From a virus (taxonomy: Duplodnaviria; Heunggongvirae; Uroviricota; Caudoviricetes), in IMG/VR virus record IMGVR_UViG_2548877009_000019: 5,037 nucleotides of DNA; one strand, written 5' to 3'. The position numbers and the translations under genes are program-made. The notes below the pieces were generated by a model. That model had not been told where the DNA came from. It ran no database searches and worked only from the letters and a program-made list of their open reading frames with translations. This document shows positions 1,794 through 3,911 of the stretch, in pieces; position 1 is the first letter of the stretch; each line of letters opens with the position of its first letter.

Positions 1794-1934
1794 AAAGACT
1801 GGCGGCACACAGTCGCCACACATCCACTAATACAGAGATATAACTATGAAGATTGAATATGCGCCCGAACGTGGGCGGGGATTCGTTCGCCCTGGTGAAA
1901 CTGAAAAACAACAAAATTGGGGTTTTTCAGGCAT

Positions 1935-1962
1935 AAAAAAAGCGGCCCCGATATGGAGCCGC
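1935..1962 (-). terminator. Minus-strand intrinsic terminator downstream of the 2037-2240 minus-strand sORF
   Basis: Hairpin GCGGCCCC / GGAGCCGC (1942-1949 and 1955-1962; 8-bp stem with one mismatch, 5-nt loop GATAT). On the minus strand it is followed by seven U (complement of A-run 1935-1941). On the plus strand only a weak CTTTCT follows. Confidence 0.5.
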
Positions 1963-2036: not shown

Positions 2037-2240
2037 TCAGGCTGGTGGGCAATTACCTTGCTTGTTGGGGCCGTATTGTGCTGCCATTTTCATCCGTTCA
2101 GAACGTGAATATTTTTTTAGAAACTCATCAAGGACAAAAGCGCATGGAGCGAATCTTTCTGATTCATGCTCGAGCGCCATATTTTCGTGCTCTCTGTTCG
2201 TTTTTTGCGATGGTGTATTGGTTGATTCTTTATTGGTCAT
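2037..2240 (-). CDS. Hypothetical small protein (67 aa, starts MTN); paralogous in position and 5' sequence to the 2698-2925 ORF
   Basis: Minus-strand ORF whose start is preceded by the conserved 45-bp leader repeat. Shares ATGACCAA and CACCAATACA with the 2698-2925 ORF at the DNA level. Has a downstream minus-strand terminator. The Shine-Dalgarno is weak (AGG about 9 nt upstream), so translation is uncertain. Confidence 0.3.
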   Translation of the reverse strand: MTNKESTNTPSQKTNREHENMALEHESERFAPCAFVLDEFLKKYSRSERMKMAAQYGPNKQGNCPPA

Positions 2241-2248
2241 TGTGTGTA

Positions 2249-2293
2249 CCTGTAAAGCAATGCGCCGGAGTTCCTCACGCCACGGCGCTGATG
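2249..2293. repeat. 45-bp repeat, copy A (CCTGTAAAGCAATGCGCCGGAGTTCCTCACGCCACGGCGCTGATG), forming the leader of the 2037-2240 sORF
   Basis: Matches copy B at 2934-2979 with 2 mismatches over 45 bp. On the minus strand it contains an inverted repeat GCGCCG-N15-CGGCGC. Flanking homology extends about 50 bp to the right (ATTCTTTGG...). Confidence 0.8.
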
Positions 2294-2297
2294 TTTT

Positions 2298-2402
2298 TTA
2301 TTCTTTGGGTTCAATACCGCGTTGCTGTAATTCTTTTCGGATTATTCGTTTTATCCAAGCTGCTAAAGAGTCATCACCGTCTTGTTGTTGTGCTTTTTCC
2401 AT
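2298..2402 (-). pseudogene. Possible truncated/diverged paralog (34 codons) of the 2983-3162 small basic protein
   Basis: Hand translation of the minus strand gives MEKAQQQDGDDSLAAWIKRIIRKELQQRGIEPKE. Its 3' end and the following DNA are homologous to the 3' end of the 2983-3162 gene (...CCCAAAGAATAA versus ...ACCAAAGAATCAGAATAA). The N-terminal two-thirds is missing. Confidence 0.25.
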
Positions 2403-2470
2403 CTTTTCCCGTAAGTCAGGATCTAAACGGAACTGGAAAGGAGGATTACCACGCCTTTCATTTTTGTGTG

Positions 2471-2498
2471 TTGACATGTCAATTACACCCCATATAAT
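2471..2498 (+). promoter_or_regulatory. Near-consensus sigma70 promoter (TTGACA, 16-bp spacer, TATAAT), plus strand
   Basis: TTGACA at 2471-2476 and TATAAT at 2493-2498, read directly. A perfect 12-bp palindrome GTGTATATACAC lies just downstream at 2507-2518 (candidate operator). Predicted start site near 2505. Confidence 0.6.
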
Positions 2499-2530
2499 GT
2501 GTTTATGTGTATATACACATTACACACAAC

Positions 2531-2577
2531 TAGCACAAAAAACAACGCCCCGCAGTGATGGGAACACATACGGGGCG
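2531..2577 (-). terminator. Minus-strand intrinsic terminator for the minus-strand sORF operon; same hairpin as module copy 1
   Basis: Stem CGCCCCG / CGGGGCG (2546-2552 and 2571-2577) with 18-nt loop. On the minus strand it is followed by UUGUUUUUUGUG (complement of 2531-2545). Confidence 0.5.
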
Positions 2578-2611
2578 TCTAACCAAACCATTAATTGAGG
2601 TAACGATTATG
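2545..2611 (+). repeat. Leader module copy 1: GC-stem hairpin (18-nt loop), TCTAACCAA, Shine-Dalgarno GAGGT, ATG (2609)
   Basis: Aligns with copy 2 (3291-3356) and, in architecture, with copy 3 (3658-3725). The ORF that starts here (MAIKEHSLLFIHTQT...) matches the P2/P3 N-termini only to HTQT and then diverges, so it looks like a degenerate copy. Confidence 0.6.
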
Positions 2612-2655
2612 GCTATAAAAGAGCATAGCTTACTCTTTATACACACACAAACGCC

Positions 2656-2695
2656 CCGGAAACGGAATAATCCGTTTCATAGTTCGGTTTTGTGT
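2656..2695 (+). terminator. Weak plus-strand terminator-like hairpin ending the short transcript from the 2471-2498 promoter
   Basis: Inner stem GAAACGGA / TCCGTTTC (2659-2666 and 2671-2678, loop ATAA), outer CCG/CGG closure, then UUUUGUGU (2688-2695). The U-run is separated from the main stem by an internal loop. Confidence 0.3.
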
Positions 2696-2697
2696 AC

Positions 2698-2925
2698 TCA
2701 TCCTGGCGGGCGATTCTTACGGGACTTTAGCCGCCGTGGGCAGCTTGCTAAAAATGCCTCCAACGCGAATAGTCCAGGTTTCATTTCTATCGGTATTAGT
2801 TGGATATTCAGAGGATTAGCCAGTTCGGCTTCAAGGCGAGCACAGGTTTCTAACTGCCTTTGCCGAATGATTTCATCTTCTTGCGTCTGCGTGTCTTGTA
2901 TTGGTGATAGTGTGTTGTTGGTCAT
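2698..2925 (-). CDS. Hypothetical small protein (75 aa, starts MTN)
   Basis: Minus-strand ORF immediately downstream of the 2983-3162 gene, separated from it by the 45-bp repeat copy B. Followed on the minus strand by the 2531-2577 terminator. Paralogous start to the 2037-2240 ORF. Weak Shine-Dalgarno. Confidence 0.35.
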   Translation of the reverse strand: MTNNTLSPIQDTQTQEDEIIRQRQLETCARLEAELANPLNIQLIPIEMKPGLFALEAFLASCPRRLKSRKNRPPG

Positions 2926-2933
2926 GGTACTGC

Positions 2934-2979
2934 CCTGTAAAGCAATGCGCCGTAGTACCTCACGCCACGGCGCTGATGG
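2934..2979. repeat. 45-bp repeat, copy B, in the 57-bp spacer between the 2983-3162 and 2698-2925 minus-strand genes
   Basis: Matches copy A (2249-2293) with 2 mismatches. Forms GCGCCG-N15-CGGCGC on the minus strand. Confidence 0.8.
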
Positions 2980-2982
2980 TGA

Positions 2983-3162
2983 TTATTCTGATTCTTTGGT
3001 CTTGCGGCGCTGGCGGCGTTTGATTTCGCCGCGCATGGCTGCGTTTATAAACTGCCCCGTGCTTTCACCTTCTTCTTTCACGTTCTCCATGCCTTCAATA
3101 ATTTCATGGGCAATACGTGCAGTTACAGATTGTGATTTTGCATTCTTTGGACCCGTTGCCAT
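2983..3162 (-). CDS. Small basic protein (59 aa, MATGPKNAKSQSVTARIAHEIIEGMENVKEEGESTGQFINAAMRGEIKRRQRRKTKESE); candidate regulator
   Basis: Start placed at the internal ATG (plus 3160-3162) because it has a strong Shine-Dalgarno GAGGGG with 6-nt spacer; the longer track ORF to 3201 has none. Divergent from the plus-strand operon across an operator-like region. Lys/Arg-rich C-terminal tail. Regulatory role is inference. Confidence 0.55.
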   Translation of the reverse strand: MATGPKNAKSQSVTARIAHEIIEGMENVKEEGESTGQFINAAMRGEIKRRQRRKTKESE

Positions 3163-3182
3163 GTTTAACCCCTCATGTTTTT

Positions 3183-3264
3183 GGTGTAAGACAATATACA
3201 CGAAAAAAAAATATTTTGAAGGGTTGACGTGTAAGACACCGTTATTTTACATTGTGTCTTACAC
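3183..3264. promoter_or_regulatory. Divergent promoter/operator region with GTGT-N3-ACAC palindromic motifs
   Basis: GTGTAAGACA (3184-3193), GTGTAAGACAC (3229-3239) and its exact inverted copy GTGTCTTACAC (3254-3264). A -35-like TTGACG at 3224-3229 overlaps the second motif; the -10 is poor (TTACAT/TACATT). Confidence 0.5.
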
Positions 3265-3290
3265 CTTGTTAATGCAAGGTACAGAAAAGA

Positions 3291-3356
3291 CGAAACCCCG
3301 CAGTGCTGGAACACATACGGGCTTCTAACCAACAACGTAAACTAGGAGCCGTTATG
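3291..3356 (+). repeat. Leader module copy 2: hairpin AACCCCG / CGGGCTT (17-nt loop), CTAACCAA, Shine-Dalgarno AGGAG, ATG (3354)
   Basis: About 90% identical to copy 1 over roughly 40 bp. Outer stem positions differ from copy 1 in a way that keeps pairing (A-U pairs replacing G-C pairs) with one internal mismatch. Confidence 0.7.
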
Positions 3357-3537
3357 GTTGCTGTAAATCATATACCACACCTTGTACACACACAAACTGC
3401 CTTTGTGTGGCGTTTTCTGGCACTGAATATCGGAGAAAAAAACCAGTTGATCGCCAGTGTCGAAAATAGCTATGATTCCCGCGCACCTCATAAAACGGGT
3501 GCCGGGATTGGCGTCCTGGGCAAAACTGAAGCGCATA
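3354..3537 (+). other. P3-paralogous short ORF (MVAVNHIPHLVHTQTAFVWRF...) with no in-frame stop before the 3538-3560 terminator; leader peptide or decayed paralog
   Basis: Good Shine-Dalgarno (AGGAG). N-terminal roughly 30 codons are paralogous to the 3723-3911 ORF with several synonymous differences. The frame runs without a stop through the terminator to 3911, so the 202-aa track ORF is unlikely to be one real protein. Confidence 0.3.
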
Positions 3538-3560
3538 ACACGCGCCCCGCGTGTTTTTTT
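3538..3560 (+). terminator. Strong Rho-independent terminator (ACACGCG-CCC-CGCGTGT followed by a T-run)
   Basis: Perfect 7-bp GC-rich stem (3538-3544 and 3548-3554), 3-nt loop, T-tract through 3560. Plus-strand specific. Lies inside the 3303-3911 track ORF and upstream of the small-ORF operon. Confidence 0.75.
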
Positions 3561-3657
3561 GTGCCGCATAGTCACACCTTATCAATGGTGGGCTGTACGG
3601 GGGCGGAGCAATCCGCGCCGGTTTCTTCAGTGTCCGGTTACGCCAACCCTGTACAGT

Positions 3658-3725
3658 CCGCCACCAGCGAAATTGGCGTTTCCGGTGGCGGTTATCTTAA
3701 CCACACTGAGGAGGCTGCCAACATG
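3658..3725 (+). repeat. Leader module copy 3: hairpin CCGCCACC / GGTGGCGG (18-nt loop), TCTTAACCAC, Shine-Dalgarno GAGGAGG, ATG (3723)
   Basis: Perfect 8-bp stem at 3658-3665 and 3684-3691. Same architecture and spacing as copies 1 and 2 but with a completely different stem sequence. Confidence 0.6.
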
Positions 3726-3911
3726 GCTACTATCCCTACCCTTGTACATTCTCAAACCGCCTTTCTCTGGCGCTTTATCATCTTTGGCGCGTCAGAACAT
3801 CAAATCATCCACGTAACCGCCTGGACGGAACGCGAAGCGCGTAGCCGTTGCCCGTCAGGTTGTGTTGCTGTATTTGCCGCCCGTATTCGTCAGGAGGTGC
3901 GCCATGATTAA
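3723..3911 (+). CDS. Hypothetical small protein (62 aa, MATIPTLVHSQTAFLWRF...); first gene of the small-ORF operon
   Basis: Strong Shine-Dalgarno GAGGAGG (3708-3714) with 8-nt spacer. Stop overlaps the next start (ATGATTAA). Paralogous N-terminus to the 3354 ORF with synonymous third-position differences. Confidence 0.6.
   Translation: MATIPTLVHSQTAFLWRFIIFGASEHQIIHVTAWTEREARSRCPSGCVAVFAARIRQEVRHD

Follow-up and report, generated by a model that had tools for sequence, protein, structure and literature searches.

The 5,037-nt stretch of viral DNA analysed here (IMG/VR record IMGVR_UViG_2548877009_000019, Caudoviricetes; referred to at its full length as the window) contains two regulatory units, located between alpA (1605-1793) and an icd-like gene (3723-3911). 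On balance we consider it probable that these units are two tandem, heterologous copies of one regulatory cassette in a P4-eta-like Bro/immunity zone, and that they would operate as a double lock. On the minus strand each unit consists, in this order, of a 59-amino-acid (aa) regulator of predicted ribbon-helix-helix (RHH) fold, a hairpin element (denoted E), a small open reading frame (ORF) that starts with MTN, and a hairpin or terminator. On the plus strand the order is a sigma-70-like promoter, a unit-specific palindrome, a leader hairpin, a Shine-Dalgarno sequence (SD) with ATG, and an icd-type N-terminus. A long plus-strand frame runs antisense to both units. This frame is the main feature of the region and was missed, together with an isrK-C4-icd module just to the right, by the original prediction made from the sequence alone.

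The two units are evident from a comparison of the window with itself. The best 45-mer direct match of the whole window links 2249-2293 with 2934-2978 (43 of 45 positions, offset 685), compared to at most 30/45 in 20 shuffles of the window. The match widens to 75 nt at 84% identity (2230-2304 versus 2915-2989), and further blocks follow in the same order: 2300 matches 2991 (+691), 2548-2586 matches 3296-3332 (+746 to +748), and 2640-2652 matches 3385-3397 (+745). These same-order blocks and a parts list that is equal in content and order bear out the prediction of two collinear bidirectional units at 2037-3450, in the form of adjacent, collinear, homologous segments; the repeats listed at the time keep their order in the self-comparison, and the proposed 45-bp repeat with two mismatches is present, its second copy ending at 2978 and not 2979. 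The identity between the units is very uneven. It reaches approximately 93-96% in E and 80% in the leader and falls close to background in the rest; outside the conserved blocks the units are not detectably alike in DNA (about 40-60% identity in a gapped global alignment). The divergence is therefore not the roughly uniform one expected of an in-situ duplication. Since the RHH genes cannot be aligned and the small ORFs are linked only via an intermediate variant, the units are copies in architecture and predicted fold, and not the product of a recent duplication.

The unit I regulator (RHH-I, 2298-2477, minus strand, RefSeq WP_000103621.1) is an intact 59-aa ORF with an ATG start, not the truncated gene at 2298-2402 that had been proposed; and because this ORF is intact and 80-98% conserved across Enterobacterales, the description of the coding parts of unit I as decayed is wrong. 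The unit II regulator (RHH-II, 2983-3162, minus strand, 59 aa) is a member of the YlcI/YnfO family (NCBIfam NF041551, 64.7 bits at a curated cutoff of 30). RHH-I scores 20 bits (E = 5e-4) against the same model, below the cutoff, and is not a member; it matches an Arc-like PHROG. Sequence homology between the two regulators was considered and rejected: BLASTP gives no alignment and the hhalign comparison of the family profiles a probability of 1.2%, so that fold and architecture alone are common to both. Both predicted structures consist of an extended segment followed by two helices (pLDDT 85.8 for RHH-I and 78.7 for RHH-II), that is, a beta-alpha-alpha fold. Most of the best structural matches of RHH-II are ribbon-helix-helix repressors and antitoxins (AmrZ, HicB, omega, Arc); for RHH-I the top two are TCP domains, followed by NikR, VapB12, AmrZ and Arc. 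A sequence search of the PDB with both families returned nothing significant. The minus-strand proteins are conserved, with 92 and 117 homologues across Enterobacterales, and dN/dS is 0.26 in the sense frame of the minus-strand genes versus 0.45 in the antisense frame, a modest difference. The YlcI-type regulator (2983-3162) has no tblastn match in 50,697 records of deposited phage genomes, though it is common in satellites and islands.

In both units a small minus-strand ORF follows, as had been predicted: ORF67 in unit I (2037-2240, 67 aa, MTNKEST..., from the ORF list; a RefSeq coding sequence; phrog_21027, E = 2.2e-12) and ORF75 in unit II (2698-2925, 75 aa, MTNNTLS..., from the ORF list; WP_012601535.1 in the related loci L010 and L011). 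ORF75 is tied to the ORF62/67 family only via the variant in L010 (E = 3e-4 and 0.009). The leftward operon of unit I is closed by a strong intrinsic terminator (1930-1957, minus strand), an 8-bp G+C stem followed by U7, with a folding energy of -22.4 kcal/mol (z = -3.2; 0 of 200 shuffles equally stable). Downstream of ORF75 the terminator scan finds a terminator-like hairpin (2654-2690, minus strand; -21.7 kcal/mol, z = -3.2).

The plus-strand parts are likewise present in both units, in agreement with the prediction; the promoters are putative throughout, as they were called by consensus match. The rightward promoter of unit I, P_I (2471-2498, TTGACA-16-TATAAT), matches 12 of 12 consensus positions and is overlapped by a palindrome (2495-2522) with a ATGTGTAT/ATACACAT core at 2505-2520. 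The rightward promoter of unit II, P_II (3224-3253, TTGACG-18-TACATT), matches 9 of 12. It lies in a control region (3183-3265) with three copies of GTGTAAGACA(C), at 3183-3193, 3229-3239 and, inverted, 3254-3265, of which the last two form the palindrome GTGTAAGACAC-N14-GTGTCTTACAC at 3229-3264; leftward promoter-like sites are found at 3220-3193 and 3272-3244 on the minus strand. The palindromes thus differ between the units and overlap promoters in both. The leader of unit I (2545-2611, plus strand; aligned to unit II and to relatives) consists of a hairpin (2545-2578), an SD (GAGG, 2597-2600) and an ATG at 2609, and that of unit II (3296-3356, plus strand) of a hairpin (3296-3321), an SD (AGGAG, 3344-3348) and an ATG at 3354. 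We note that the leader hairpin block of unit I (2534-2586) occurs at 96% identity, unannotated, in many O157:H7 genomes and reads ...KT(K/T)PRS(A/D)G... in the long ORFs.

The hairpin element E lies between the regulator stop and the start of the small ORF. Its first copy (2249-2293, minus strand) contains a stem-loop at 2262-2288 followed by AUUGCUUUACAGG, the second (2934-2978, minus strand) a stem-loop at 2947-2973. Variant diversity was gathered through the YlcI protein, because exact patterns of E proved too strict: scans with them returned one locus (Shigella) in genome contigs and none in viral contigs. Of 80 IMG/VR loci recovered in this way, 48 have E between the regulator stop and the small-ORF start, and the 32 loci that lack E also lack the small ORF. 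Across 27 distinct variants, the 9-bp stem is paired in 95% of cells in the minus-strand RNA, and 18 one-sided changes (G-C to G-U, U-A to U-G) keep the pairing on the minus-strand RNA alone, while they produce mismatches on the other strand. The stem is conserved; its U tracts, AUUGCUUUAC on the minus strand and, for unit I alone, UGAUGUUUUUU on the plus strand, are weak, and the terminator scan made no call. We infer that E forms a hairpin between the two cistrons of the leftward mRNA, where it would terminate transcription in part, stabilise a 3' end or serve as a leader for translation of the small ORF, and that it may double as a homology patch for recombination. A search of Rfam with E and the leader hairpins gave no match at E <= 1. 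Two further candidate roles were rejected. As a relative of the C4 RNA, E shows a marginal same-orientation local alignment to 3461-3730 (12/500 and 81/500 shuffles are as good); as a target of the C4 RNA, it shows no complementary-orientation alignment, and C4-E duplex energies do not differ from those of shuffles. In locus L007 (E. coli O104:H4), two E-like sequences (3020-3056 and 3305-3341, 285 bp apart) flank a 62-aa minus-strand gene; this is a degraded island beside a transposase fragment, with a layout unlike that of the window.

The origin of the tandem can be traced at its internal junction. Unit I ends with an icd remnant of approximately 20 codons (2609-2668, plus strand; MAIKEHSLLFIHTQT..., identified by motif scan and alignment), which is joined at about 2668/2669 to the sequence 3' of ORF75, that is, to the 3' flank of unit II. 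Among 5426 complete E. coli genomes, the junction is present in 111-119 and the whole tandem in 107. The islands with the junction are located at the roxA, tRNA-Pro/yejM and tqsA sites, carry different integrases and replication genes, and are 77-100% identical to the window (relatives at 89% and 77% included). In the 77% relative, L010, the junction is the same as in the window, and one old recombination therefore accounts for all of these islands. The comparison shows that in this event an icd gene was fused at codon ~20 to the sequence 3' of a second cassette, and that the composite has since been kept and moved among islands, with parts reassorting around E. Relatives with one cassette were found as well as relatives with the tandem, which had been the point left to copy number in related islands: the type I cassette stands alone in L004 (an O157:H7 strain), the YlcI type with another small ORF in L005 and L006, and L003 is a chimera of ORF67 and RHH-II. 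The respective region of L003 (3257-3310 versus window 2257-2995) differs from the window by the loss of exactly 685 bp, and its sequence changes from unit I to unit II inside E. L003 is a deletion by recombination between two E copies and direct evidence that E copies recombine; by the same comparison, such recombination regenerates single, chimeric cassettes. Other tandem combinations are found in the IMG/VR loci L062, L077, L072 and L083, in which either both units are of the YlcI type or a unit of that type takes the place next to alpA. Judged from these relatives, the tandem is an established form, though a minority one, and its parts are reshuffled around joints that are conserved. The proposed readings, nested modules of immunity or regulation on the one hand and a trace of recombination on the other, come close to the evidence, whereas the implied recent in-situ duplication with subsequent decay does not, given the uneven divergence, the intact units and the widespread junction.

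Both cassettes are covered by plus-strand ORFs in antisense orientation. ORF-A (1846-2598, 250 codons, from the ORF list) crosses the whole of unit I and ends right behind leader hairpin I; L004, L010 and L006 conserve its N-terminus MKIEY.PERGRGFVRPGE, and it has no protein-family match. ORF-B (2609-3328, 239 codons; the ORF list gives it from an alternative GTG at 2555) starts from the icd remnant, runs through the whole of unit II and stops inside leader II; in L009 it is fused in frame to the neighbouring ORFs. ORF-C (3354-3911, 185 codons; full-length match to phrog_29966, E = 8.4e-110) is eta-like, passes through isrK and C4, and ends as Icd. ORF-B and ORF-C restart at an SD-ATG 11 and 26 nt past the preceding stop, respectively. 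In L004, L005 and L009, one plus-strand frame from alpA to the end of icd has the terminal stop only, over 334-587 codons; in L006 the same frame has two stops and an open run of 435 codons. The remaining five frames in these four loci have 9-45 stops. The resulting ORFs comprise 314 (L004), 430 (L006) and 602 codons (L009), and all end as Icd. None of 2000 randomisations in which the minus-strand proteins are kept and the rest is shuffled reaches the observed runs of the relatives.

The same openness is found in the wider family. Openness was measured by the spanning run; fixed 1380-nt stop counts around YlcI were dropped as uninformative, because the region overruns the ORF ends. In 79 IMG/VR loci, the run that spans the YlcI gene stays open for a median of 336 codons, for at least 250 in 72 loci and for up to 765; its wobble position is common with the gene in 78 of the 79 loci, and the C-terminus is usually of Icd type. 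In the RHH-I family, antisense runs comprise 135-138 codons in Xenorhabdus, 261 in Proteus and 496 in Mannheimia, with 5-28 in the other antisense frames. In the four minus-strand genes of the window, none of 22 CAN codons follows a T-ending codon, an arrangement that would give an antisense TGA. The middle of the long ORFs has no protein-family match and is rich in Cys, Ser and Arg. Selection seems to act on the openness of the frame and not on a protein sequence. The frame coincides with partial plus-strand pseudogenes in RefSeq, denoted 'Icd-like' or 'BRO-N', that cover the cassettes in L004 (2626-3219), L005 (2704-3183) and L006 (2566-3093); the annotation of L004 leaves out both minus-strand genes.

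To the right of the cassettes, the window contains an isrK-type RNA (3483-3559, plus strand; Rfam RF01394, 66 bits at a gathering threshold of 50) with a terminator at 3537-3555, a C4/CI-type antisense immunity RNA (3581-3668, plus strand; RF01695, 77.6 bits at a threshold of 45), and the icd-like gene (3723-3911, plus strand; NCBIfam NF033153, 57.2 bits at a cutoff of 25; also in RefSeq), which is the counterpart of P4 kil and is nested in frame at the end of ORF-C. A promoter-like site is located inside ORF-C at 3447-3476. The C4 RNA is complementary to the start region of icd at 3723 (3700-3725; duplex z = -3.0), and not to the starts at 1846, 2609 and 3354, nor to E. The arrangement has the marks of the P4 type: a C4/CI RNA with an isrK/seqA-type partner, and a long ORF that overlaps the RNA gene, has an internal promoter-like site and ends as icd. 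In P4, eta and kil are nested genes: eta starts upstream of a constitutive promoter, includes the CI RNA gene and has kil as its final part, and its translation from an upstream promoter stops termination and makes the transcript insensitive to immunity (PMC10111431). The Bro zones of Gram-negative phage-inducible chromosomal islands (PICIs) have homologues of CI and seqA, that is, of C4 and isrK (PMC10111431). A Pfam Phage_ASH match and a RefSeq pseudogene denoted 'ash family protein' (3354-3722; 15355-15693 in L001) overlie the isrK and C4 RNA genes; what is named a protein family here is for the most part the translation of RNA genes that an eta-like ORF contains. The 5' end of icd occurs a third time, at 3371-3416 (76% identity to 3731-3776, spacing 360), and L002 and similar relatives lack exactly this 360-bp isrK-C4 cassette; in them the only icd follows immediately on leader II. 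The immunity RNA module is therefore itself a cassette, present or absent, with icd 5' repeats as its borders.

A mechanism is proposed because the right-hand end of the window matches P4, with ORF-C over isrK and C4, its end as icd and its internal promoter-like site. Each RHH dimer would bind its own palindromes and repress its own divergent promoter pair. With two specificities, each repressing its own promoter pair, rightward entry into the replication operon would be locked twice in series. Rightward transcripts from alpA, P_I or P_II would be translated through the long ORFs that run antisense across the cassettes and end as Icd. By analogy with P4, this translation may keep termination and the C4-type immunity RNA from acting on read-through transcripts, a role to which the strong selection for an open frame would lend indirect support, and convergent transcription would interfere with leftward expression of the repressors. 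A broader claim can be formulated, which we regard as possible but doubtful: that in AlpA-type satellites of Enterobacterales and Pasteurellaceae, repressor operons are embedded antisense in a long, sequence-unconstrained, translation-competent frame (up to ~765 codons) that ends as Icd, that read-through covered by ribosomes, started at an upstream promoter that the helper activates, would both silence the RHH genes through convergent transcription and protect the early transcript from termination and C4, and that two stacked heterologous cassettes would form a two-key lock. If true, this would be a widespread and strongly selected full antisense overlap of genes, with one partner selected only for being open.

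Several observations weigh against a double lock made of one cassette in duplicate. RHH-I and RHH-II cannot be shown to be homologous (hhalign probability 1.2%), and the phrase 'two copies of one cassette' consequently refers to architecture and fold. In L010, unit I lacks E and the small ORF, so a complete second cassette is not always kept. Two-sided compensatory changes are absent from E, whose covariation score does not exceed that of shuffles (27 variants). The long frame is broken twice in the window, and the statistic for the window alone is less strong, as 5-12 of 2000 randomisations reach its 264 codons; openness over the genes is partly expected from amino-acid composition (per-gene P = 0.06-0.88). 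Amino-acid identity in the sense and antisense frames is barely apart (0.61 versus 0.56). P_I, P_II and the other promoters are consensus matches only, and the operation of the lock, comprising transcription, translation and RHH binding, is something we infer from sequence.

The tandem could also have arisen by a recent in-situ duplication of about 700 bp, followed by decay of unit I. Such an event would produce the collinear blocks some 685-748 bp apart and the near-identical 45-mer, but not an E that is ~93-96% identical next to RHH genes with no detectable similarity. The genes of unit I are moreover intact and highly conserved, the junction is common to islands at three attachment (att) sites down to 77% identity, and each cassette type also exists alone; we regard this explanation as extremely improbable. 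A neutral fossil, left over from one recombination and with only unit II, beside icd, still regulating, is a more serious alternative, although in our judgement an unlikely one. It is consistent with a tandem that occurs in ~2% of genomes compared to 31% for E, with the partial deletion of unit I in L010, and with the E-E deletion seen in L003. A fossil would not be expected to keep the unit I proteins intact in every examined tandem with E (L002, L009, L011, L012-L014), nor to have unit I swapped for other intact cassette types with the tandem retained (L009, L062, L077, L072), nor to retain in P_I a perfect consensus promoter.

Two further explanations concern the coding content itself. If the plus strand alone were coding, the region would constitute one Bro/eta-type gene, its minus-strand genes would be shadow ORFs and the repeats would be internal to a protein. 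The frame is indeed open for up to 765 codons, ORFs of this kind have been called as genes and placed in PHROGs (phrog_29966), and RefSeq lists the plus-strand pseudogenes in L004-L006 noted above. We nevertheless hold this to be very unlikely: the middle of the long ORFs resembles no family in its Cys/Ser/Arg-rich sequence, the frame breaks twice in the window while the minus-strand proteins are intact, the RHH models for these proteins are confident, dN/dS is lower in the minus-strand frame, the G-U pattern in E fits minus-strand RNA, and a terminator follows each leftward operon. Each unit might instead be a type II toxin-antitoxin (TA) or addiction module, with an RHH antitoxin and a small toxin, that stabilises the island or aborts infection, the two being adjacent by chance. 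The gene order with the RHH gene first and the small ORF second, the weak VapB/HicB-like signals of RHH-I (NF050799, E = 0.012; JGI names) and palindromes suited to autoregulation would all agree with a TA module. However, the small ORFs (62-75 aa), ORF67 and ORF75 included, match no toxin or defence family in Pfam, NCBIfam or PADLOC, and defence-system libraries gave no meaningful matches. A structured 45-nt intercistronic element is unusual in TA pairs, 32 of the 80 YlcI loci have neither E nor a following small ORF, and a location divergent from the early operon is where the master regulator of a satellite would sit. A TA function is thus improbable, though less so than a region coding on the plus strand alone, and we retain the tandem of heterologous regulatory cassettes as the preferred explanation.

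The genomic context of the window is consistent with such a regulatory role. The window is 99.9% identical to an E. coli chromosomal island (L001) located between roxA and phoQ, whose RefSeq genes comprise int, alpA, the Icd-like gene, a RepA-type helicase, capsid, protease, portal, connector, HNH, TerS and TerL. By this annotation L001 has the set that characterises capsid-forming PICIs, namely int, alpA and rep with an own capsid and packaging set, a size of ~15 kb and a PICI att site, and the window, by its match to L001, covers that end of a capsid-forming PICI at roxA/phoQ which carries int, alpA and icd. The gene next upstream of the units, alpA (plus strand), encodes an AlpA-family regulator (Pfam PF05930, E = 5e-18; RefSeq). 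In the gap between int and alpA, direct repeats with a motif of the GTGACACAATCA / CTGACACAATCA type (1275-1315 and 1525-1560) may be arm-type or AlpA binding sites. After int, a perfect 12-bp palindrome (AAAGGCATAAAA/TTTTATGCCTTT, 1417-1445) resembles a bidirectional terminator and coincides with a sub-threshold Rfam match to BSnc120. The zone that holds the units is the 'Bro zone' of Gram-negative PICIs, which Williams and co-workers have likened to the eta/kil/CI region of P4 (PMC10111431).

That the Bro zones of PICIs act like P4 eta in general has therefore already been published; for the cassettes, E, the tandem form and the conserved antisense frame, no description was found in the literature searched. 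The same literature names no repressor of a Gram-negative PICI and describes induction only as AlpA-dependent. RHH cassettes at the position of a master regulator, with exchangeable specificities and sometimes stacked, would provide concrete candidates, together with their operator sites, for how the islands stay silent and choose a helper. The islands are clinically common, with E found in 1672 of 5426 complete E. coli genomes (31%). The antisense frame offers a system in which translation as an anti-termination device can be tested outside P4, and likewise the way in which two strands are co-constrained when they share a wobble position. The frame also accounts for misannotations that recur in this region, namely the 'ash family', partial 'Icd-like' and 'BRO-N' pseudogenes.

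Among known systems, phage P4 is the closest in layout; its immunity and early control region comprises a vis/alpA homologue, the promoters PLL and PLE, the nested genes eta and kil, and the CI RNA with seqA and seqC. Window and P4 share an AlpA-type gene upstream (the vis/alpA homologue), a long ORF that ends as a small cell-division or killing gene (icd corresponding to kil) and overlaps a C4/CI RNA with an isrK/seqA-type element, and several rightward promoters, predicted ones in the window, with translation from the upstream ones covering the downstream control elements. In contrast to P4, the long ORF of the islands studied here carries one or two complete antisense leftward operons of RHH gene, E and small ORF with their own promoters and operators; P4 eta is not known to have such antisense genes. 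The ORF of the window is also tiled in three with SD-ATG restarts, and antitermination would apply here by analogy. With the immI region of P1 and P7 (c4 RNA, icd, ant), the window shares a strong C4 match and an icd directly downstream whose start region is complementary to C4, and tblastn with ORF-C matches the immI regions of the P1-like phages D6, RCS47 and JL22. Unlike in P1/P7, no ant follows icd in the window and the icd operon leads into replication genes; the upstream RHH cassettes are not known to have a counterpart in P1. The capsid-forming EcCIEDL933 and other AlpA-type PICIs of Gram-negative bacteria have the same roxA site, int, alpA, rep and packaging module, and L004 represents their single-cassette version. 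Induction of EcCIEDL933 by its helper phage requires alpA according to the published description, which reports this dependence and names no island repressor.

The switches of other mobile elements resemble the cassettes in principle. In stl/str of the Staphylococcus aureus pathogenicity islands (SaPIs) and in arc-mnt/ant of P22, a small DNA-binding protein is encoded divergently from an early operon, with operators in the shared control region, as in the window. Arc and Mnt are themselves RHH proteins that control the antirepressor operon of P22 immI. The relation is one of fold only, and the window differs in having two switches in series and a repressor operon inside an antisense frame. With the mosaic immunity regions of lambdoid phages, the window shares conserved short non-coding blocks (here E, the leader and the icd 5' end) around diverged, reassorting alleles of regulator and operator; where lambdoid phages replace one allele by another, the window keeps two in tandem.

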